A stretch of DNA of 11,875 nucleotides from a virus (lineage: Duplodnaviria > Heunggongvirae > Uroviricota > Caudoviricetes), in the IMG/VR virus record IMGVR_UViG_2698536366_000007. The stretch is one strand, 5' to 3'. Each line of letters begins with the position of its first letter. Within the stretch, counting starts at the first letter, position 1. The position numbers were made by a program, and so were the translations under genes. The notes beneath the pieces were generated by a model. That model was not told the DNA's origin. It saw only the letters and a program-made list of their open reading frames with translations, and made no database searches. Of the stretch, positions 1-11,501 are shown piece after piece.

Positions 1-51
1 CTGCTTAAAAAAAGAACAAATGGTAGTGTCCGCTATTGCCAGTACACCTCA
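1..51 (+). mobile_element. IS600 (IS3 family) terminal 51 bp including the inverted repeat; the element body lies upstream of the window
   Basis: Reverse complement of 1-51 matches 8686-8736, the end of the complete IS600 copy, and ends in CCTCA; bases 6-8 TAA correspond to the orfB stop. Confidence 0.8.
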
Positions 52-849: not shown

Positions 850-1003
850 AAACGGTTTGCGGGAAAAGGAGAGTTAAGTAGAATTGCAGCGGGTGCTTGA
901 GGCTATCTGTCTCAGGCATGAACACCAAAAGGCAGATAGAGAAAAGCCCCAGTTAACATTACGCGTCCGGCAAGACGCTTAACATTAATCTGAGGCTCAA
1001 TCT

Positions 1004-1216
1004 ATGAACGGCAAATCTAGGTTAGCCTCTTACGTGCCGAAAGGCAAGGAGAAGCAGGCTATGAAGCAGCAAAAGGCGATGTTAATCGCCCTGATCGTCA
1101 TCTGTTTAACCGTCATAGTGACGGCACTGGTAACGAGGAAAGACCTCTGCGAGGTACGAATTCGAACCGGCCAGACGGAGGTCGCTGTCTTCACAGCTTA
1201 CGAACCTGAGGAGTAA
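1004..1216 (+). CDS. hokD: Hok/Gef family type I toxin with in-frame mok-like N-terminal extension; core hok reading frame 1061-1216 (51 aa)
   Basis: Core translation MKQQKAMLIALIVICLTVIVTALVTRKDLCEVRIRTGQTEVAVFTAYEPEE matches, from memory, the HokD/RelF toxin; the leader carries hok-mRNA-like elements (GCTTGAGGC at 896-904; AGCCTCTTAC...GCAAGGAGAAG immediately before the ATG). Confidence 0.8.
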   Translation: MNGKSRLASYVPKGKEKQAMKQQKAMLIALIVICLTVIVTALVTRKDLCEVRIRTGQTEVAVFTAYEPEE

Positions 1217-1793: not shown

Positions 1794-2852
1794 GTGCGGG
1801 TATTACTTCGACCTGTTCTGGTACCGGAACTCGGTCTGGTTATCGTTAAGCCAGGCCGTGAATCAATGTCAGCATTCCATAACGGCAGAATACTGGTGGA
1901 GCCGGAACCAAAAAGCATGCGTAATCTGCCGTCCGGGGTCGTTCCTGCCGCTCGCCAGCCGCTGGTGGAAGACAAAACATTGCTGCCGTTTTTCAGTAAC
2001 GCACGGGTGATTCGTGCTGCTGGTGGTGCTGGTGCATTGTCTGACTGGCTGTTGCGCCATATTAAATCCTGCCAGTGGCCACACGGCGATTATCATCACA
2101 GCGAAACCGTCATTCACCGTTATGGTACCGGCGCAATGGTGTTGTGCTGGCACTGCGACAACCAGCTGCGTGACCAGACATCCGAATCACTCGAGCAACT
2201 TGCTCATCAAAACCTGTCAGCATGGATGATTGACGTCATCGGTCACGCAATAAGCGGTACGCAGGAGCGTGAATTATCTCTGGCTGAATTATCCTGGTGG
2301 GCGGTCCGCAATCAGGTGGCGGACGCGCTACCGGAAGCGGTATTACGTCGTTCGCTGGGGTTGCGTGCGGAAAAAATTCGCTCTGTGTACAGTGAAAGCG
2401 ACATCATACCGGGAGAGCAGACAGCCACCAGCATACTGAAGCAGCGCACAAAAAATATTGCGTTACTGCCTCACGTCCACCAGCAACAGAACCCACCACA
2501 GGAAAAGACGGTGGTCAGCATTGCCGTTGATCCGGAGTCACCGGCTCAGTATCTCCAGCGCCAGAAATCACAACGGGAAGAGATGCCTGTATACACGCGC
2601 TGGGTAAAAACGCAGAAATGCATGACGTGTGGCAATCAGGCAGATGATCCGCATCACATCATTGGTCATGGACTGGGAGGGATGGGAACAAAGGCTGATG
2701 ATTTGTTTGTTATTCCGTTATGCCGTAAATGCCGTAACGAACTACATGCCGGAGTAAAAGATTTTGAAGAGAAACACGGCAGTCAGCTGTTGTTGCTGAT
2801 TCGTTTTTTAATGCACGCGAGAAATTCGGGTGTTCTGAAGTGGAAAGCATAA
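1794..2852 (+). CDS. DUF968-like prophage protein with C-terminal HNH/zinc-finger-like Cys/His cluster (YdfU-like)
   Basis: 352-aa ORF; C-terminal CMTCGNQADDPHHIIGHG...CRKCRNELH pattern; GTG start at 1794 after GGAGG (1785-1789); alternative ATG start at 1866 (MSAFHNG...). Confidence 0.75.
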   Translation: MRVLLRPVLVPELGLVIVKPGRESMSAFHNGRILVEPEPKSMRNLPSGVVPAARQPLVEDKTLLPFFSNARVIRAAGGAGALSDWLLRHIKSCQWPHGDYHHSETVIHRYGTGAMVLCWHCDNQLRDQTSESLEQLAHQNLSAWMIDVIGHAISGTQERELSLAELSWWAVRNQVADALPEAVLRRSLGLRAEKIRSVYSESDIIPGEQTATSILKQRTKNIALLPHVHQQQNPPQEKTVVSIAVDPESPAQYLQRQKSQREEMPVYTRWVKTQKCMTCGNQADDPHHIIGHGLGGMGTKADDLFVIPLCRKCRNELHAGVKDFEEKHGSQLLLLIRFLMHARNSGVLKWKA

Positions 2853-3233
2853 ATGACCGAGCGCATAGAATTTGTTTTACCTTACCCGCCGACGGTGAAC
2901 ACTTACTGGCGTCGTCGTGGCAGCACATATTTTGTATCAAAAGCCGGGGAGCGTTATCGCCGGGCAGTGGCGCTTATTGTTCGCCAGCAGCGGCTGAAAT
3001 TAAGCCTGTCCGGAAGGTTGGCAATAAAAATTATTGCAGAACCACCGGATAAGCGCCGCCGTGACCTGGACAATATTCTGAAAGCGCCGCTGGATGCGCT
3101 GACGCATGCGGGGTTGCTAATGGACGATGAGCAGTTTGATGAAATCAATATCGTTCGTGGTCAGCCAGTATCTGGTGGACGTCTGGGGGTGAAGATTTAT
3201 CCCATAATGCTTGAAGGGCAGGTCAAAAAATGA
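2853..3233 (+). CDS. rusA: RusA-like Holliday junction resolvase
   Basis: 126 aa with the RRRDLDN acidic motif and overall similarity to E. coli RusA; ATG immediately follows the upstream stop. Confidence 0.8.
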   Translation: MTERIEFVLPYPPTVNTYWRRRGSTYFVSKAGERYRRAVALIVRQQRLKLSLSGRLAIKIIAEPPDKRRRDLDNILKAPLDALTHAGLLMDDEQFDEINIVRGQPVSGGRLGVKIYPIMLEGQVKK

Positions 3234-4051
3234 AACTGGAAGATTTACCGAAATACTACTCCCCAAAATCCCCCGGCCTGACTGATGCATCGGCCTCAAC
3301 GTCGAAAGATGCGCTGAGTATCACTGATGTGATGGCCGCGCAGGGCATGACACAGAATCGGGCTGAGATGGGGGTTTCTGCGTTCCTTGGGAAAATGGGC
3401 ATTAGTATGAATGACAGAGAGCGGGCAACAGAATTGCTGACAGAATATGCACTCAGTCGGTGTGATCGCGTGGCGGCGTTAAGAAAACTCCCGGCAGAAA
3501 TAAAACCGGCAGTGATGCGTATTATGGCTTCGTATGCGTTTGAAGATTATGCCCGTAGCGCGGCGAGCAAAAAACAGTGCCCCTGCTGTCACGGAAAAAA
3601 ATTTATTGAAAGCGAGGTTTTTACAAACAAGATCCAGTATCCGGATGGTAAGCCGCCGGTATGGGCAAAGTGTACGAAAGGTGTGTATCCGTCTTACTGG
3701 GAAGAATGGAAAAAAGTCAGGGAGGTGGTAAAAGTTGCCTGTCCGGAGTGTGGCGGAAAGGGTGAGGTTTCCACCGCCTGTAAGGATTGCCGTGGGCGTG
3801 GTGTCGCCATTCATCGTGAAGAGTCGGTAAAACGTGGTATGCCTGTTATCAGAGACTGCCAGCGTTGTGGTGGTCGTGGCTATGAAAGACTACCATCAAC
3901 GGAGGCATTTAATGCTATATGCGAGGTGACAAACCAGATAACACGCGCGTCATGGGAAAAAACAGTTAAGAAATTTTATGATGCGCTGGTGACCCGGTTT
4001 GATATTGAAGAAGCATGGGCTGAGCGGCAGTTAAAAAAGGTAACTAGGTAA
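3230..4051 (+). CDS. Q: late-gene antitermination protein Q (phage 82/Qin type, zinc-binding)
   Basis: 273 aa; several CxxC pairs (CPCCHGKK, CPECGGKG, CKDCRGRG, CQRCGGRG); ATGA overlap with rusA; immediately followed by a PR'-like promoter and terminator. Confidence 0.8.
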   Translation: MKLEDLPKYYSPKSPGLTDASASTSKDALSITDVMAAQGMTQNRAEMGVSAFLGKMGISMNDRERATELLTEYALSRCDRVAALRKLPAEIKPAVMRIMASYAFEDYARSAASKKQCPCCHGKKFIESEVFTNKIQYPDGKPPVWAKCTKGVYPSYWEEWKKVREVVKVACPECGGKGEVSTACKDCRGRGVAIHREESVKRGMPVIRDCQRCGGRGYERLPSTEAFNAICEVTNQITRASWEKTVKKFYDALVTRFDIEEAWAERQLKKVTR

Positions 4052-4623: not shown

Positions 4624-5682
4624 ATGCTTAATACTGTAAAAATATCCAGTTGTGAGTTAATCAACGCCGACTGCCTGGAATTTATCCGGTCGTTACCCGA
4701 AAATTCTGTTGACCTGATAGTCACGGACCCGCCGTACTTTAAAGTGAAGCCTGAGGGCTGGGATAACCAGTGGAAGGGCGACGATGATTACCTGAAGTGG
4801 CTGGACCAGTGTCTGGCGCAGTTCTGGCGGGTGCTGAAACCTGCCGGAAGTCTTTACCTGTTCTGTGGTCATCGCCTGGCATCTGATATCGAAATCATGA
4901 TGCGTGAACGCTTCAGTGTGCTGAACCATATTATCTGGGCGAAGCCGTCCGGACGCTGGAACGGATGCAACAAGGAAAGCCTGCGGGCGTATTTCCCCGC
5001 CACAGAGCGCATTCTGTTCGCGGAACATTATCAGGGGCCGTATCGTCCGAAAGATGCCGGGTATGCGGCGAAGGGCAGTGCACTGAAACAGCATGTGATG
5101 GCCCCGCTGATTTCTTACTTTCGTGATGCGCGAGCTGCCCTGGGGATAACGGCAAAACAGATTGCAGATGCCACAGGAAAGAAAAACATGGTGTCGCACT
5201 GGTTCAGTGCCGGTCAGTGGCAGTTGCCGAATGAAAGCGATTATCTGAAATTACAGGCGCTGTTTGCCCGGGTGGCAGAAGAGAAGCATCGGCGTGGTGA
5301 ACTGGAAAAGCTCCACCACCAGCTGGTGGATACGTATACCTCACTGAACCGGCAGTATGCGGAGCTGCTGAGTGAATATAAACATCTGCGGCGGTATTTT
5401 GGCGTGACGGTGCAGGTGCCGTATACCGATGTGTGGACGCATAAACCGGTGCAGTTCTATCCCGGGAAACATCCGTGCGAAAAACCGGCAGAAATGCTGC
5501 AGCAGATAATCAGCGCTAGCAGTCGTCCGGGTGACCTGATTGCAGATTTTTTCATGGGGTTGGGTTCGACAGTGAAAGCGGCACTGGCGCTCGGGCGTCG
5601 TGCAATTGGCGTTGAGCTGGAGACTGAACGTTTTGAGCAGACGGTTCGGGAAGTACAGGATTTAGTCAGCCAGAACGGATGA
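4624..5682 (+). CDS. DNA methyltransferase, beta-class amino-MTase (N6-adenine or N4-cytosine), phage-borne and apparently orphan
   Basis: 352 aa; N-terminal DPPY motif (VDLIVTDPPY) and C-terminal FxGxG AdoMet motif (FFMGLGST); no restriction endonuclease partner seen in the window. Confidence 0.85.
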   Translation: MLNTVKISSCELINADCLEFIRSLPENSVDLIVTDPPYFKVKPEGWDNQWKGDDDYLKWLDQCLAQFWRVLKPAGSLYLFCGHRLASDIEIMMRERFSVLNHIIWAKPSGRWNGCNKESLRAYFPATERILFAEHYQGPYRPKDAGYAAKGSALKQHVMAPLISYFRDARAALGITAKQIADATGKKNMVSHWFSAGQWQLPNESDYLKLQALFARVAEEKHRRGELEKLHHQLVDTYTSLNRQYAELLSEYKHLRRYFGVTVQVPYTDVWTHKPVQFYPGKHPCEKPAEMLQQIISASSRPGDLIADFFMGLGSTVKAALALGRRAIGVELETERFEQTVREVQDLVSQNG

Positions 5683-5722: not shown

Positions 5723-5798
5723 GGCCCTTTAGCTCAGTGGTGAGAGCGAGCGACTCATAATCGCCAGGTCGCTGGTTCAAATCCAGCAAGGGCCACCA
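5723..5798 (+). tRNA. ileZ: tRNA-Ile (anticodon CAU, ileX-like minor isoleucine tRNA), copy A
   Basis: Cloverleaf by eye: acceptor GGCCCTT/AAGGGCC, anticodon loop CTCATAA, T-arm GCTGG-TTCAAAT-CCAGC, encoded CCA; close to E. coli ileX. Confidence 0.85.
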
Positions 5799-5805
5799 TC
5801 ACATA

Positions 5806-5882
5806 CCGCCATTAGCTCATCAGGAAAGAGCGCCAGCCTTCGAAGCTGGCTGCGCGGGGTTCAAGTCCCCGATGGCGGTCCA
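5806..5882 (+). tRNA. argN: tRNA-Arg (anticodon UCG), copy A
   Basis: Acceptor CCGCCAT/ATGGCGG, anticodon stem CCAGC/GCTGG with loop CTTCGAA, T-arm CGGGG-TTCAAGT-CCCCG, encoded CCA. Confidence 0.75.
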
Positions 5883-5895
5883 TTATCTGCATCAT

Positions 5896-5972
5896 GCGTT
5901 GTTAGCTCAGCCGGACAGAGCAATTGCCTTCTAAGCAATCGGTCACTGGTTCGAATCCAGTACAACGCGCCA
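5896..5972 (+). tRNA. argO: tRNA-Arg (anticodon UCU), copy A
   Basis: Acceptor GCGTTGT/ACAACGC, anticodon stem ATTGC/GCAAT with loop CTTCTAA, T-arm ACTGG-TTCGAAT-CCAGT, encoded CCA. Confidence 0.85.
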
Positions 5973-6012: not shown

Positions 6013-6416
6013 AAATGTCTCACAATTCAGACGGTTGACAGTTGTCTGTTTTGCGGGGAGTTTGTTAAAAGAAACTGGCATGGTGAATCCCCCTGTGCGG
6101 AGGGGCAATCAGCGAGTAGGTATATGGGATAATCGCGGATTCAGGTGCTGGTACTGAATTCACCGGGAGGCACCCGGCATCATGCAATGGCACATAGCGC
6201 CACTCTCCAGCCCTCTCCGGAGGGGCTTTTCTGTGCCGGATACATCACAGTTTCTGGAACCTTAGGTACTACAGTATCAGTCAGGGTGCTATATTTTCAG
6301 ATGTGATGAAAGCCTGTCAGCAGGCAGGGCGTATCGGAAATGACCCAGTAGAGAAAACGTTGACTCAGATACCGGTGCTGAGTTACCGGGAAACCGGCAT
6401 CACATGACCGCTATCC
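6011..6416 (+). repeat. conserved non-coding element X, copy A (core 6011-6227 shared by all three copies; 6228-6416 shared with copy B only)
   Basis: Near-identical to 8281-8685 and, for the core, to 10923-11130; no convincing ORF; contains TTGACA at 6035-6040 and two GC hairpins sharing CGGAGGGG. Confidence 0.7.
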
Positions 6417-6814
6417 TGAGGTGTACTGGCAATAGCGGACACTACCATTTGTTCTTTTTTTAAGCAGCCATCTGATGATATTTTTCCCTGAAGGCTGCCG
6501 GGGAGATATTCCCCAGACGAGAGTGACGACGCTGACGATTGTAGAAAATCTCAATGTATTCCCGTATTACTGAGATGGCTTCATCCCGGTTATTAAAACG
6601 ATAGTGGCTCAGGCTCTCATTTTTCAGCGTTCCCCAGAAGCTTTCCATCGGAGCGTTGTCGTAACAGTTACCTTTACGCGACATTGATGTTTTCAGACCA
6701 GACTGCTCCTGTATGACCCGGTAATCGTATGCGCAGTACTGTGAACCTCGATCAGAGTGGTGGATTAGCCCGGCAGGTGGGCGCTGGCTCCTGAGCGCCA
6801 TAAACAGGGCTTTA
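6417..6814 (-). mobile_element. IS600 fragment (398 bp from the orfB end, including the terminal inverted repeat)
   Basis: Matches 8686-8083 of the complete copy, then switches abruptly into Q coding sequence at 6815. Confidence 0.85.
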
Positions 6815-7232
6815 TCCAGTATCCGGATGGTAAGCCGCCGGTATGGGCAAAGTGTACGAAAGGTGTGTATCCGTCTTACTGGGAAGAATGGAAAAAAGTC
6901 AGGGAGGTGGTAAAAGTTGCCTGTCCGGAGTGTGGCGGAAAGGGTGAGGTTTCCACCGCCTGTAAGGATTGCCGTGGGCGTGGTGTCGCCATTCATCGTG
7001 AAGAGTCGGTAAAACGTGGTATGCCTGTTATCAGAGACTGCCAGCGTTGTGGTGGTCGTGGCTATGAAAGACTACCATCAACGGAGGCATTTAATGCTAT
7101 ATGCGAGGTGACAAACCAGATAACACGCGCGTCATGGGAAAAAACAGTTAAGAAATTCTATGATGCGCTGGTGACTCGGTTTGATATTGAAGAAGCATGG
7201 GCTGAGCGGCAGTTAAAAAAGGTAACTAGGTT
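6815..7232 (+). pseudogene. 3' fragment of a second Q antiterminator gene (about 139 codons), stop codon lost through a small deletion
   Basis: About 99% identical to 3634-4051, with SNPs and a 6-bp deletion that removes the stop; fused to the IS600 fragment. Confidence 0.8.
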
Positions 7233-7258
7233 GATTTTTCCGGAATCTGTGGTAAATT
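7231..7258 (+). promoter_or_regulatory. second copy of the PR'-like promoter
   Basis: Same -35 TTGATT and extended -10 TGgTAAATT as at 4057-4084. Confidence 0.45.
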
Positions 7259-7307
7259 CGTCATAACTATGGGCGTTTTATGCCTGACGTTAGAAGAGTT
7301 TCTACAA

Positions 7308-7329
7308 CCCGCCGCCGAGCGGGTTTTTT
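7308..7329 (+). terminator. second copy of the tR'-like terminator
   Basis: Same CCCGC-cgccga-GCGGG stem plus T-run as at 4134-4155. Confidence 0.65.
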
Positions 7330-7368
7330 ATTGCGGAATTAATTACGGACCGTTATTATTCTGCTCCC

Positions 7369-7444
7369 GGCCCTTTAGCTCAGTGGTGAGAGCGAGCGAC
7401 TCATAATCGCCAGGTCGCTGGTTCAAATCCAGCAAGGGCCACCA
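7369..7444 (+). tRNA. ileZ: tRNA-Ile (CAU), copy B
   Basis: Identical to 5723-5798. Confidence 0.85.
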
Positions 7445-7451
7445 TCACAAA

Positions 7452-7531
7452 CCGCCATTAGCTTATCAGGAAGAGCAGACGACACGATAACAGGGTTGTT
7501 GGTGCGGGGGCGGGTCCCCGATGGCGGTCCA
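7452..7531 (+). pseudogene. degenerate tRNA-Arg-like sequence (probable tRNA pseudogene), copy B
   Basis: Acceptor and D arms match the copy-A tRNA-Arg(UCG), but the anticodon arm is replaced by unrelated sequence and the T-loop lacks TTCRA. Confidence 0.6.
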
Positions 7532-7544
7532 TTATCGGTATTCA

Positions 7545-7621
7545 GCGTTGTTAGCTCAGCCGGACAGAGCAATTGCCTTCTAAGCAATCGGTCACTGGTT
7601 CGAATCCAGTACAGCGCGCCA
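7545..7621 (+). tRNA. argO: tRNA-Arg (UCU), copy B
   Basis: Same as 5896-5972 with one acceptor-stem change (A to G, giving a G-U pair). Confidence 0.8.
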
Positions 7622-7731
7622 TATTCATTCTTCCAGATTCCTTCCGGCAGAGCCTTATACTGAAATATACCTGGCTCAGGATATTGTTGAAAATATTTTA
7701 TGTTTGTCAAAAATAAAAGTTCTGTTAAGTA

Positions 7732-8085
7732 TTGATTGAGTGTTTGTTATACGGTCTAATGGTTTTTTCAGCATTAAATATTTATCATTCATATGGTGTG
7801 GGTAGAGTGAATATTGATGAGGCGTCGGGGTGTTTCATCCTTAGGCAGCGTATTGATATAGTCAATGCAGCACGAGCAAAGGCCTTCAGCCGTTTGACAG
7901 TTTTGTTCTGTACTCCTGATCGTCTTTCGGGAAGAGACGTTATTATTCTGAATAGTGATGCTATACAGAGGGTTTGCGATGAGTTCATGGTTGCTAATTC
8001 AGAATTATTTGCTCTTGTTCAGGAGTACAACAGAATAGCCAGGACCTGTGGTATGGATGAACTTCGGATTACTCATCTGGGGTAG
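7732..8085 (+). CDS. hypothetical cargo protein (up to 117 aa) in AT-rich DNA, copy 1; start codon uncertain
   Basis: Longest ORF in the post-tRNA slot; track start 7732 is TTG, first in-frame ATG at 7759, in-frame GTGs at 7798 and 7807; no strong SD; no family recognised. Confidence 0.45.
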   Translation: MIECLLYGLMVFSALNIYHSYGVGRVNIDEASGCFILRQRIDIVNAARAKAFSRLTVLFCTPDRLSGRDVIILNSDAIQRVCDEFMVANSELFALVQEYNRIARTCGMDELRITHLG

Positions 8086-8280
8086 ATACATATCTGGATT
8101 ATCACCTGTTACGGTAAAAAGTGATTGCTTACTGTTTTTGTGAATGGCATTGCAGCAGCCGGATAATGTCAGTGCTGGCTGACGGTGTGCTGGTGGCGGG
8201 TGTGGTGGTTGTTGCTTTCCCGTTGCTGAAAAAGAAAACGCCAGACTGTTAGCCGGGTATCAGTTAGCGGGAGAAATTTT

Positions 8281-8685
8281 TAAATACTTCACAATTCAGG
8301 CGGTTGACTGTTGTCTGGTTTGCGGGGAGTTTGTTAAAAGAAACTGGCATGGTGAATCCCCCTGTGCGGAGGGGCAATCAGCGAGTAGGTATATGGGATA
8401 ATCGCGGATTCAGGTGCTGGTACTGAATTCACCGGGAGGCACCCGGCATCATGCAATGGCACATAGCGCCACTCTCCAGCCCTCTCCGGAGGGGCTTTTC
8501 TGTGCCGGATACATCACAGTTTCTGGAACCTTAGGTACTACAGTATCAGTCAGGGTGCTATATTTTCAGATGTGATGAAAGCCTGTCAGCAGGCAGGGCG
8601 TATCGGAAATGACCCAGTAGAGAAAACGTTGACTCAGATACCGGTGCTGAGTTACCGGGAAACCGGCATCACATGACCGCTATCC
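8281..8685 (+). repeat. conserved non-coding element X, copy B
   Basis: Matches 6011-6416 (SNPs in the first 40 bp, identical thereafter up to the IS600 junction). Confidence 0.7.
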
Positions 8686-8728
8686 TGAGGTGTACTGGCA
8701 ATAGCGGACACTACCATTTGTTCTTTTT

Positions 8729-9547
8729 TTAAGCAGCCATCTGATGATATTTTTCCCTGAAGGCTGCCGGGGAGATATTCCCCAGACGAGAGTGACGACG
8801 CTGACGATTGTAGAAAATCTCAATGTATTCCCGTATTACTGAGATGGCTTCATCCCGGTTATTAAAACGATAGTGGCTCAGGCTCTCATTTTTCAGCGTT
8901 CCCCAGAAGCTTTCCATCGGAGCGTTGTCGTAACAGTTACCTTTACGCGACATTGATGTTTTCAGACCAGACTGCTCCTGTATGACCCGGTAATCGTATG
9001 CGCAGTACTGTGAACCTCGATCAGAGTGGTGGATTAGCCCGGCAGGTGGGCGCTGGCTCCTGAGCGCCATAAACAGGGCTTTACCTGTCAGCTCTTTTGT
9101 CATGCGCTCTCCCATGGCGTAGCCGACAATTTCGCACGTATAAACATCTTTGATGCCAGCGAGGTACAACCATCCCTCCTGTGTGGCAACATACGTCAGG
9201 TCCGCCACCCAGACCTGATTTGGTGCTGTAGGAGCGAACGTCTGGTTCAGCAGATTTGGCGCAACTGGCAGATTGTGGTTCGAGTTCGTAGTCGCTCTGA
9301 ACTTGCGTTTCTGCTTACAGCGTAGCCTTAGCTCCTTACGAAGACGTGCCAGTCGGTCACGACCAACGATGATGCCATTCTCTGCCAGCTCCGTCTGGAG
9401 CCGCCGGGTTCCATATGTTTCGCGAGTGCGGATATGTGCCACCTTAATCTCCAGTTTTAGCCGCTCATCACTTTGTTTTCTGTCTGAGGGTTCATGCTGT
9501 ACCCAGTTGTAATAACCGCTCCTGGATACACCAAATACCTGACACAT
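8729..9547 (-). CDS. IS600 transposase OrfB (DDE integrase domain), expressed as an OrfAB fusion by -1 frameshifting
   Basis: 272 aa from the first ATG; IS3-family OrfB sequence; the frame is open upstream into the orfA 3' end. Confidence 0.9.
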   Translation of the reverse strand: MCQVFGVSRSGYYNWVQHEPSDRKQSDERLKLEIKVAHIRTRETYGTRRLQTELAENGIIVGRDRLARLRKELRLRCKQKRKFRATTNSNHNLPVAPNLLNQTFAPTAPNQVWVADLTYVATQEGWLYLAGIKDVYTCEIVGYAMGERMTKELTGKALFMALRSQRPPAGLIHHSDRGSQYCAYDYRVIQEQSGLKTSMSRKGNCYDNAPMESFWGTLKNESLSHYRFNNRDEAISVIREYIEIFYNRQRRHSRLGNISPAAFREKYHQMAA

Positions 9548-9582
9548 CGCTTCAATGGGAAATTGTTGTCGCCATTGTTCGA

Positions 9583-9885
9583 TTAACGCGTATTTTTCAG
9601 CGACTCCTGTGCAAAATACGCTGTTGCTTTTTTTAATATATCTCGCTCAAGGCGAGCTTCATTTAACGCCTTACGCAGTTGCAGAATTTCAGATTCCAGT
9701 TCAGCCACCGTGCGGGAACCAGGAGTACCGAGCCCTTTTCTGGCGGCGGTAACCCATTGTCCTAAAGTGCCTTCAGGAAGAGATAATCGGGAAGCGCCTT
9801 CACTGATCGAAAGTTGATTTTCAAGAACCGTTCTGACAGCTTCGGCTTTGAACTCTTTAGAGTAACGTTGGGTTTTTCTGCTCAT
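9583..9885 (-). CDS. IS600 transposase OrfA (helix-turn-helix / leucine zipper)
   Basis: 100 aa; A AAA AAG slippery heptamer on the coding strand (plus-strand T7 run at 9628-9634) near its 3' end. Confidence 0.9.
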   Translation of the reverse strand: MSRKTQRYSKEFKAEAVRTVLENQLSISEGASRLSLPEGTLGQWVTAARKGLGTPGSRTVAELESEILQLRKALNEARLERDILKKATAYFAQESLKNTR

Positions 9886-10001
9886 TATTAGCTCCTTCTG
9901 ATGCCATTCTATTTCAGGAAGGAGTGTCCGTTAAACTCAGGCTACCTCAAGGGTGGTTTTTTATTGCGGAATTAATTACGGACCGTTATTATTCTGCTCC
10001 C

Positions 10002-10077
10002 GGCCCTTTAGCTCAGTGGTGAGAGCGAGCGACTCATAATCGCCAGGTCGCTGGTTCAAATCCAGCAAGGGCCACCA
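10002..10077 (+). tRNA. ileZ: tRNA-Ile (CAU), copy C
   Basis: Identical to 7369-7444. Confidence 0.85.
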
Positions 10078-10084
10078 TCACAAA

Positions 10085-10164
10085 CCGCCATTAGCTTATC
10101 AGGAAGAGCAGACGACACGATAACAGGGTTGTTGGTGCGGGGGCGGGTCCCCGATGGCGGTCCA
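10085..10164 (+). pseudogene. degenerate tRNA-Arg-like sequence, copy C
   Basis: Identical to 7452-7531. Confidence 0.6.
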
Positions 10165-10177
10165 TTATCGGTATTCA

Positions 10178-10254
10178 GCGTTGTTAGCTCAGCCGGACAG
10201 AGCAATTGCCTTCTAAGCAATCGGTCACTGGTTCGAATCCAGTACAGCGCGCCA
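10178..10254 (+). tRNA. argO: tRNA-Arg (UCU), copy C
   Basis: Identical to 7545-7621. Confidence 0.8.
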
Positions 10255-10364
10255 TATTCATTCTTCCAGATTCCTTCCGGCAGAGCCTTATACTGAAATA
10301 TACCTGGCTCAGGATATTGTTGAAAATATTTTATGTTTGTCAAAAATAAAAGTTCTGTTAAGTA

Positions 10365-10718
10365 TTGATTGAGTGTTTGTTATACGGTCTAATGGTTTTT
10401 TCAGCATTAAATATTTATCATTCATATGGTGTGGGTAGAGTGAATATTGATGAGGCGTCGGGGTGTTTCATCCTTAGGCAGCGTATTGATATAGTCAATG
10501 CAGCACGAGCAAAGGCCTTCAGCCGTTTGACAGTTTTGTTCTGTACTCCTGATCGTCTTTCGGGAAGAGACGTTATTATTCTGAATAGTGATGCTATACA
10601 GAGGGTTTGCGATGAGTTCATGGTTGCTAATTCAGAATTATTTGCTCTTGTTCAGGAGTACAACAGAATAGCCAGGACCTGTGGTATGGATGAACTTCGG
10701 ATTACTCATCTGGGGTAG
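10365..10718 (+). CDS. hypothetical cargo protein (up to 117 aa), copy 2
   Basis: Identical to 7732-8085. Confidence 0.45.
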   Translation: MIECLLYGLMVFSALNIYHSYGVGRVNIDEASGCFILRQRIDIVNAARAKAFSRLTVLFCTPDRLSGRDVIILNSDAIQRVCDEFMVANSELFALVQEYNRIARTCGMDELRITHLG

Positions 10719-10922
10719 ATACATATCTGGATTATCACCTGTTACGGTAAAAAGTGATTGCTTACTGTTTTTGTGAATGGCATTGCAGCAGCCGGATAAT
10801 GTCAGTGCTGGCTGACGGTGTGCTGGTGGCGGGTGTGGTGGTTGTTGCTTTCCCGTTGCTGAAAAAGAAAACGCCAGACTGTTAGCCGGGTATCAGTTAG
10901 CGGGAGAAATTTTTAAATACTT

Positions 10923-11130
10923 CACAATTCAGGCGGTTGACTGTTGTCTGGTTTGCGGGGAGTTTGTTAAAAGAAACTGGCATGGTGAATCCCCCTGTGC
11001 GGAGGGGCAATCAGCGAGTAGGTATATGGGATAATCGCGGATTCAGGTGCTGGTACTGAATTCACCGGGAGGCACCCGGCACCATGCAATGGCACATAGC
11101 GCCACTCTCCAGCCCCTCTCCGGAGGGGCT
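10923..11130 (+). repeat. conserved non-coding element X, copy C (core only)
   Basis: Matches the 6011-6227 core with two differences, then diverges into unique AT-rich sequence. Confidence 0.7.
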
Positions 11131-11162
11131 GTTTATATTGATTTTGTCAGATGTGAGTAAAC

Positions 11163-11196
11163 TCCTTATGGACTTTGTTGTTTTAGTCCATAAGGA
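11163..11196. terminator. perfect 12-bp stem hairpin (TCCTTATGGACT ...10 nt... AGTCCATAAGGA), probable terminator for the minus-strand ORF
   Basis: Exact inverted repeat overlapping the stop of the 11166-11501 minus-strand ORF; U-tract is weak on both strands. Confidence 0.5.
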
Positions 11197-11501
11197 CATA
11201 TTTGCAGAGTGCAACGGTTATTAAAGCATTCATTCAATACGTTATCTGTATTTGTAGGGCATTCCTGGCTATTTTTGATTGAATTCCAGAATGTTTTATT
11301 GAATGGTACTACGTTGTAAATGGTTACAGGTAGCACTTTGTTATTGAGCATGATGCCTGTGTGAGTCAGTGTAAATATACTTTCAGGAGGTAAGAAAGCA
11401 TCCGATTGATACCAGATTATTAATTTTATTTTACTCCATATGACTGAAAAAGATATTCCGCATGATGGCTGGATAACTGTATCAATCACAATCCACTTCA
11501 T
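11166..11501 (-). CDS. hypothetical protein (111 aa) in an AT-rich island, oriented against late transcription; moron-like
   Basis: ATG with SD AAGGA at 6-nt spacing on the minus strand; hairpin at its 3' end; AT-rich codon usage distinct from the phage backbone; no family recognised. Confidence 0.5.

Follow-up and report, generated by a model that had tools for sequence, protein, structure and literature searches.

A cargo (moron) site at PR' is known in lambdoid prophages, and sRNA genes are found there 3' of the cargo coding sequence (Tree et al. 2014, PMC4104026). In phage phiP27 this region reads MTase, ileZ, argO, stxA2e, stxB2e and holin, and in Stx2a_WGPS8 it reads Q, ileZ, argN, argO, stx2A and stx2B. 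The slot 3' of Q/PR' gives its occupants induction-coupled, high-level expression like that of Shiga toxin. STnc100, an sRNA that recurs in the locus described below, has been related to the PasD sRNAs of EPEC (2026 Pas sRNA preprint).

The tciA-tciB-tciC genes of P1 are another system that bears on this locus. The tciA product is a TerB-like protein of 141 aa, the tciB product belongs to DUF3927 and the tciC product has 35 aa; tci functions have been assigned 'by homology' only. In P1 (NC_005856.1, our locus L104, 10413-15009) the order is dmt methylase, a dicF-like region, tRNA-Asn/Thr, tciA, tciB, tciC and tRNA-Ile2.

Here we analysed a stretch of 11,875 nt from a tailed-phage record (IMG/VR IMGVR_UViG_2698536366_000007), which we call the window, and describe a gene of 92 codons in its cargo slot. 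No study of this ORF was found in the literature on tciA/tciB, DUF3927 and STnc100. The hypothetical-protein deposits were already known, as were PHROGs 2873 and 4827, two sequence clusters without function that cover the family; the corrected 92-codon model and the annotation gap are the main gains of this analysis. A conserved and unstudied gene in the PR' slot is a reasonable target for prophage biology.

Layout of the window

The window represents the late-regulatory region of a lambdoid prophage of the Qin/Stx-phage-like kind, which IS600 has rearranged (Table 1). Its intact Q presumably drives late transcription through the cargo slot. From its position relative to Q, we infer that the terminator-like hairpin just 3' of the Q' fragment is a candidate tR' of the short PR' transcript. 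The gap between the 92-aa gene and the DUF3927 gene is 35 nt, and the two are probably co-transcribed. One STnc100 copy follows each tRNA/cargo unit, and the three copies in the window score 122-132 bits (gathering score 47).

Table 1. Positions of the features in the window
Feature	Position	Strand	Evidence or remark
IS600 end, inverted, 51 nt	1-51		window start
hok/sok type I toxin-antitoxin, intact-looking	891-1216		Rfam sok 112 bits; Hok-like ORF 1004-1216
DUF968 gene	1794-2852		
rusA	2853-3233		
Antiterminator Q, intact	3230-4051	+	Pfam PF03589, E = 1.6e-53
N6/N4 DNA methylase (MTase)	4624-5682		
Copy A tRNAs, three	5723-5972		
STnc100 sRNA, first copy	6049-6238		
IS600, truncated	6417-6814		joined to Q 3' fragment at 6814
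Q', second Q, 3' fragment	6814-7266		copy of 3632-4051 (self-BLAST)
Terminator-like hairpin	7306-7325	+	terminator scan
Late-operon tRNA pair, copy B: tRNA-Ile2 'cat' (ileZ) and tRNA-Arg tct (argO)	7369-7621	+	ARAGORN, Rfam; ileZ/argO annotated in phiP27
Cargo module: leader, 92-aa gene and DUF3927 gene	7635-8263	+	629 nt; repeat families, self-BLAST
N-terminal 'extension' of the 117-codon ORF, most likely 5' leader	7732-7806	+	closed or frameshifted frames in relatives
92-codon gene (copy B), GTG start, TAG stop	7807-8085	+	homolog starts, dN/dS, SNPs, PGAP call in L006 variant
DUF3927/TciB-like 43-aa single-pass membrane peptide	8121-8252	+	Pfam PF13064, E = 1.7e-27; phrog_1470; PGAP-annotated in L001, L101
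STnc100 sRNA, second copy, marks module end	8318-8507	+	Rfam RF02076
IS600-like element between copies B and C	8686-9949, ends approximate	-	ORFs 9583-9885, 8729-9547; self-BLAST; 'IS3-like element IS600' annotation in E. coli match
Copy C: same four features as copy B (tRNA pair, ORF, DUF3927 gene, STnc100)	after IS600		
92-codon gene, second copy (copy C)	10440-10718	+	identical to copy B
STnc100 sRNA, third copy	10951-11140		
iraM anti-adaptor gene	11166-11501	-	NF007393, E = 5e-48

Copies B and C are base-for-base identical over 7322-8448 and 9955-11081 (self-BLAST), and the complete repeat of 1,179 nt is 99.7% identical. The second ORF copy that the initial annotation had placed at 10365-10718 lies within this repeat and is indeed identical. 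The repeat is a segmental duplication flanking IS600, a side product of rearrangement linked to IS600 in degenerate prophages. In copy C the connection to Q/PR' is severed by IS600; copy B keeps the PR'/tR'-like region. The whole duplicated arrangement was not found in any complete E. coli genome. Three IS600-like pieces were seen in the window (1-51, 6417-6814 and about 8686-9949), which suggests a degenerate, recombined prophage of the Shigella type.

Several smaller observations were made on the neighbouring elements. A sub-threshold isrK-like match at 1225-1306 lies beside hok/sok. The tRNAs at 5723-5798, 7369-7444 and 10002-10077 were called tRNA-Met (CAT) by ARAGORN, and their homologs in RefSeq and Stx-phage records are annotated as tRNA-Ile (ileZ, of the lysidine-modified Ile2 type). 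E. coli RM10042 (L005, 2166-5116) holds five STnc100 copies, four of them in a tandem run. The iraM gene is convergent with the cargo module, has a GC content of 34.5% and is the slot's second cargo gene, with an orientation of its own.

The gene occupies the stx slot

The tRNA block of the window has homologs (ileZ/argN/argO) in 289 phage records, the majority from Stx2 phages, and the homology of the window to phiP27 and Stx2 phages stops at 7634. The slot of the 92-aa gene is the stx slot. The module is missing from copy A, where the tRNA-Arg ends at 5972 and the STnc100 repeat runs from 5995. The GC content is 41.2% in the 117-codon ORF, 31.4% in the leader (7635-7806) and 41.7% in the module, against 49.1% in Q, 53.2% in the MTase gene and 48.5% in the window. 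The stx-equivalent position, the AT-rich composition unlike the backbone and the absence from copy A, all proposed in the initial annotation, were thus borne out.

That annotation had further called the ORF an unrecognised candidate moron. A moron, in the sense of Juhala et al. 2000, is a gene additional to those of the phage, with an atypical composition and with a promoter and terminator of its own that allow expression in the lysogen. The 92-aa gene lies between conserved phage genes, is present or absent in related phages (stxAB is found instead in phiP27 and the Stx2 phages) and differs from its flanks in base composition. On the plus strand the leader has only a weak sigma-70-like match (9/12, 7687-7714) that is not conserved in L003, and the first convincing terminator 3' of the module is STnc100's own (8478-8496). 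On the same leader, a strong minus-strand sigma-70-like site (7710-7683; TTGACA, 16 nt spacer, AACAAT; 10/12) points toward the tRNA-Arg gene and may be due to chance in AT-rich DNA.

Like stxAB at the PR' site, the gene is found 3' of Q/PR' and the ileZ/arg tRNAs and 5' of sRNA genes and the lysis cassette, its GC content is below that of the backbone, and the module comes and goes as a unit. However, its product resembles neither Stx nor any moron product that has been characterised, and in contrast to sporadic PR'-site cargo the family holds the same position across distant genera. Since the Q-to-lysis position is kept in prophages of at least five genera, among them Citrobacter, Salmonella, Morganella and Serratia, at 20-40% identity, the gene would be an accessory late-operon gene rather than sporadic cargo. 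A conserved late-operon accessory gene fits better than a recently acquired virulence moron. What stands of the earlier proposal is a real gene in the cargo slot, with a lower GC content, that is present or absent together with DUF3927; its family was already in PHROGs and its distribution is not sporadic.

The coding sequence starts at the inner GTG codon

The initial annotation described an ORF of 117 aa from TTG 7732 to the TAG stop at 8085, with alternative starts at ATG 7759 and GTG 7798/7807. The ORF, its translation and these codons are placed correctly, but the conserved coding sequence runs from GTG 7807 and comprises 92 aa. All remote homologs begin within about three residues of the equivalent of this GTG, several of them with GGGAG, GAGGGG or AAGGGA SDs, and the extension is absent from every one. 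In the L006/L009 subtype (63% identity) the frame 5' of the equivalent codon is closed after 10 codons, an AGGAG SD lies 5 nt 5' of the start and PGAP calls the 92-aa protein WP_001017777.1. In L005 the N-terminal 25 codons are out of frame with the core. The window-type copy has a weak SD (GGGT) and the GTG start.

The 75-nt extension also evolves differently from the core. It contains six variable sites, among them a 1-nt deletion, in 73 near-identical E. coli loci, with a nonsynonymous to synonymous ratio of 4:1, and varies like the non-coding upstream stretch. Compared with L003, dN/dS is 0.65 in the extension vs 0.26 in the core. No signal of RNA structure was seen in the leader (z = -0.58). 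These comparisons indicate that positions 7732-7806 are most likely a 5' leader that is untranslated as part of the protein. Since the extension would then not be part of the gene, the hydrophobic N-terminus, a possible membrane anchor or signal peptide, would not be part of the protein.

It is very improbable that all 117 codons from the TTG are translated and that the product carries a hydrophobic N-terminus as anchor or signal. In L003 as in the window type no stop interrupts the frame from 7732 onward, the nucleotide homology to L003 begins at the TTG, and gene callers produce versions of 108 and 117 aa. However, the extension is closed, frameshifted or absent in the relatives named above, the 1-nt deletion occurs in a natural copy, the SNPs are mostly nonsynonymous, ATG 7759 is not conserved in L003 and the Kyte-Doolittle (KD) hydropathy is only 1.43 at most over the N-terminal 19 residues. 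The PHROG 2873 profile (108 positions) takes in 16 residues 5' of the conserved start. The gene model should be corrected to 92 codons from GTG, not 108 or 117.

The 92-codon ORF is under purifying selection

In the initial annotation conservation was held to be uninformative. Within the window this is so, as the copies are identical, but external homologs strongly support coding. Three divergent E. coli subtypes were recovered, including L003/L004/L005 (60% amino acid identity) and L006/L009 (63%). In L003/L004/L005 the nucleotide homology extends from the TTG to the stop, and the indels are multiples of three. Core dN/dS is 0.26-0.27 among the three subtypes (60-63% identical) and 0.14-0.27 in every other unsaturated pair, and pairwise core comparisons gave about twice as many differences at position 3 as at positions 1 and 2. 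All other reading frames carry stops. In the antisense frame dN/dS also looks low, since the wobble positions of this frame fall on those of the sense frame; the antisense frame carries stops as well. An antisense ORF of 67 aa (7785-7988) was rejected, as homologs have stops in every reverse frame.

The polymorphism sample of 73 near-identical E. coli loci (27 distinct sequences) gave the same picture as the homologs. Within the 279 nt of the core (7807-8085), 10 sites vary through 11 changes, six synonymous and five nonsynonymous. Six of 11 exceeds the 23% expected under neutrality (P = 0.022), and the flanks vary more than the core, with 17 variable sites in 185 nt (Fisher P = 0.015). No stop, frameshift or indel was observed in the core across these loci. 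Rare copies with frameshifts or insertions do exist (P0009, P0013, P0020 and P0021). The check on homologs and selection proposed in the initial annotation therefore came out in favour of coding, with a conserved reading frame, low dN/dS and a synonymous excess in the core. Judged by these comparisons, together with the start and length conserved in divergent homologs, the 92-codon ORF is a genuine protein-coding gene.

That the ORF arose by chance in AT-rich cargo DNA which codes for no protein, and perhaps overlaps an RNA element, is hardly credible. The silence of PGAP in all 36 sampled genomes, the weak SD and the sRNA-rich neighbourhood would agree with it. Nevertheless, selection, in-frame indels and the length and start conserved in homologs of seven genera speak against it, no Rfam match was found in 7622-8263, the leader is unstructured, the coding sequence folds only moderately better than shuffles (z = -2.3) and the Pas/STnc100 sRNAs map outside the ORF. 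The comparative data already largely refute the absence of a gene.

Distribution and annotation of the family

Of 5,426 complete E. coli genomes, 1,314 contain the ORF sequence, with at least 99% identity in 1,179 and 60-80% in about 128. In a sample of 36 complete E. coli genomes with a copy at least 98.9% identical (e.g. L001 5111-5464 and L101 5001-5354), all 36 lack a PGAP annotation of the gene. The L006 variant, 63% identical and with a strong SD, is annotated by PGAP. The omission of the 92-codon gene from RefSeq is a systematic annotation gap, and a Pfam/NCBIfam family model would close it.

The initial annotation could not assign the protein to any family. We found that the exact 92-aa product already stands in the databases under the name hypothetical protein (NCBI nr, UniProt A0AAU8W454_SHISO), the 108-aa call being A0A136WL65_ECOLX, and that the ORF protein matches PHROG 2873 (E = 4e-70). 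The 92-aa protein matches phrog_2873 over residues 1-92 (E = 5.6e-58) and phrog_4827 with E = 2.2e-5. Among the family members tested, all 11 match PHROG 2873 and 10 match PHROG 4827. Scans against Pfam, NCBIfam and PADLOC gave no consistent match (three subtypes; 11 family members for Pfam). The PADLOC anti-phage defence profiles gave no match at E <= 1 in the three subtypes, and PDB sequence profiles gave nothing below E = 0.04.

An exhaustive HMM search of 1.84 billion representatives returned 22 proteins and a profile search of a 5.8-billion set returned 45. All matches are named 'hypothetical', have no Pfam or fused domains and are 35-123 aa long, except for one repetitive protein of 696 aa (P0033); its five matched stretches were judged spurious, as a low-complexity repeat. 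The hosts of the family are Escherichia/Shigella, the Citrobacter freundii complex, Salmonella, Providencia, Morganella, Xenorhabdus and Serratia, and the homologs from Citrobacter, Salmonella, Morganella, Serratia, Xenorhabdus and Providencia have 89-110 aa. Among GTDB species representatives, close relatives were found only in E. coli and in one short, probably misbinned contig.

A tblastn search of 50,697 phage records found the gene in a single isolated phage, mEp460_ev081 (LR597641.1, L002 4186-4461). There the gene has been overlooked in the annotation, which lists a 39-codon antisense ORF in its place. The strain name suggests an evolved or recombinant derivative, which may have picked up the module from a host prophage. 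Since this carrier phage forms plaques, the gene is tractable for study.

The predicted protein

The 92-aa product has a computed mass of 10.4 kDa and a pI of 5.7 and is mildly acidic. Two AF2 models built from family alignments (mean pLDDT 82.5 and 86.9) place helices at residues 3-33/35 and 50-81, and the predicted fold is an antiparallel two-helix coiled-coil hairpin. The connector is modelled with less confidence and holds the most conserved motif, A-F-S-x-L-x-V-x-[FY]-x-x-P-[DE]. Over 24 sequences the best-conserved positions are R23, L12, N75 and A78. Generic antiparallel coiled-coil hairpins, such as the prefoldin beta subunit (1fxk_A), are among the closest known comparisons. A PerC/Pch-like or ANR-like regulator was considered and rejected, as neither had profile support (Pfam). 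The check for transmembrane segments and signal peptides that the initial annotation had proposed was negative in the 92-aa core, where the KD maximum is 0.94, and the protein is predicted to be cytoplasmic.

Genomic context and possible role

In Enterobacterales prophages the gene stands 3' of Q, with or without a methylase gene and tRNAs in between, and 5' of the holin/endolysin genes; TerB-like and DUF3927 genes often come next. It is the first, or one of the first, late-strand protein genes. In a Citrobacter prophage the order is Q, several genes, the 92-aa gene, TerB-like, DUF3927, holins and endolysin. The Salmonella prophage has Q, tRNA-Thr/Gly, the gene, a pRha-domain gene, holins and endolysin. 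In Morganella the gene follows Q, a methylase and (tRNA-Asn) and precedes holin and lysozyme, and in Serratia it stands after Q and three tRNAs and before two small ORFs and lysozyme. Outlier contexts are those of the P0034/P0035-type members, with a Providencia copy among tail genes.

Taken together with the predicted fold, we consider with moderate confidence that the 92-codon gene encodes a late-expressed cytoplasmic hairpin protein which acts as a late-phase protein-binding adaptor. By analogy with stx in the same slot and from lambdoid biology in general, it would be transcribed mainly by Q-antiterminated read-through from PR' on induction. The size and fold of the product suggest that it would bind a partner rather than catalyse a reaction, and most likely it would be a small adaptor on an envelope- or lysis-related partner in the late phase. 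An enzyme, toxin or secreted effector is unlikely. Nothing points to a toxin- or effector-like function, and because the 92-aa protein shows no sign of one the pathogenic reading of the locus is unchanged. Against the adaptor stand the weak SD and GTG start of the window-type copy, the silent PGAP calls (36/36), DUF3927 and TerB-like genes that also occur without the gene, the members outside late regions, the rare disrupted copies and the single isolated carrier phage.

Some of those members would suit a lysogenic-conversion moron, a helical protein that is made in the lysogen from its own promoter and modulates transcription factors or nucleoid proteins over adhesin and virulence genes, as modelled on the small helical modulators of AraC-type regulators. 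In the L003/L004/L005 subtype (e.g. L005 2755-3480) an AraC-type (HTH_18) gene is inserted directly 5' of the homolog, and the DUF3927 frame 3' of it is broken. One more subtype is near a GerE/LuxR-type gene, the P0027 subtype occurs on IncF plasmids associated with pigs, where a PapB/FocB regulator and a chaperone-usher operon are its neighbours, and P0031 follows bfp-like type IV pilus genes. The AT-rich leader with its sigma-70-like site would agree with expression in the lysogen. However, that promoter match is weak and missing from L003, the protein has no DNA-binding or known regulator domain (no Pfam match, including PerC, at E <= 1), the neighbouring regulators vary in family and distance, and the dominant context across genera is the late operon beside lysis genes. 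We regard such a regulator as unlikely.

Rather unlikely, in our view, is a three-part 'Tci-like' cassette in which the 92-aa protein, a TerB-like protein and the DUF3927 peptide act on the envelope, with the 92-aa protein as cytoplasmic partner or regulator. Superinfection exclusion, stress tolerance of the colicin/tellurite type and control of a toxic membrane peptide would be examples of its function. The TerB-like and DUF3927 genes 3' of the 92-aa gene in several prophages are homologs of tciA and tciB. DUF3927 follows directly in the window type, the order gene, TerB-like, DUF3927 and holin is found in L009 and Citrobacter L090, a DUF3927 remnant is left 3' of the gene in L003/L005, and, compared with copy A, the module behaves as one unit of gain or loss. 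On the other hand, P1 tciABC and JLK-2012 have the TerB-like/DUF3927 pair without the 92-aa gene, the gene occurs without DUF3927 in Salmonella, Morganella, Serratia and L006, the tci functions rest on homology, and PADLOC gave no match. The 92-aa protein matches none of tciA, tciB and tciC; identity with TciC was rejected, since P1 TciC has 35 aa and is unrelated. From the parallel layout in P1, the association of methylase, tRNAs and Tci genes may be an older shared module.

We also think it doubtful that the family is a late-phase factor, conserved in position and so far unrecognised, of a large enterobacterial lambdoid lineage, the first ORF translated from the Q-dependent transcript and missing from the RefSeq annotation of about one in four complete E. 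coli genomes. Such a factor might regulate holin or lysis timing from the cytoplasm, or might be a partner of the TerB-like/DUF3927 membrane module. Translation of all 117 codons and the absence of a gene are both poorly supported. The adaptor is the reading that we prefer. Peptides of the 92-aa protein suited to targeted mass spectrometry are NIDEASGCFILR and DVIILNSDAIQR.
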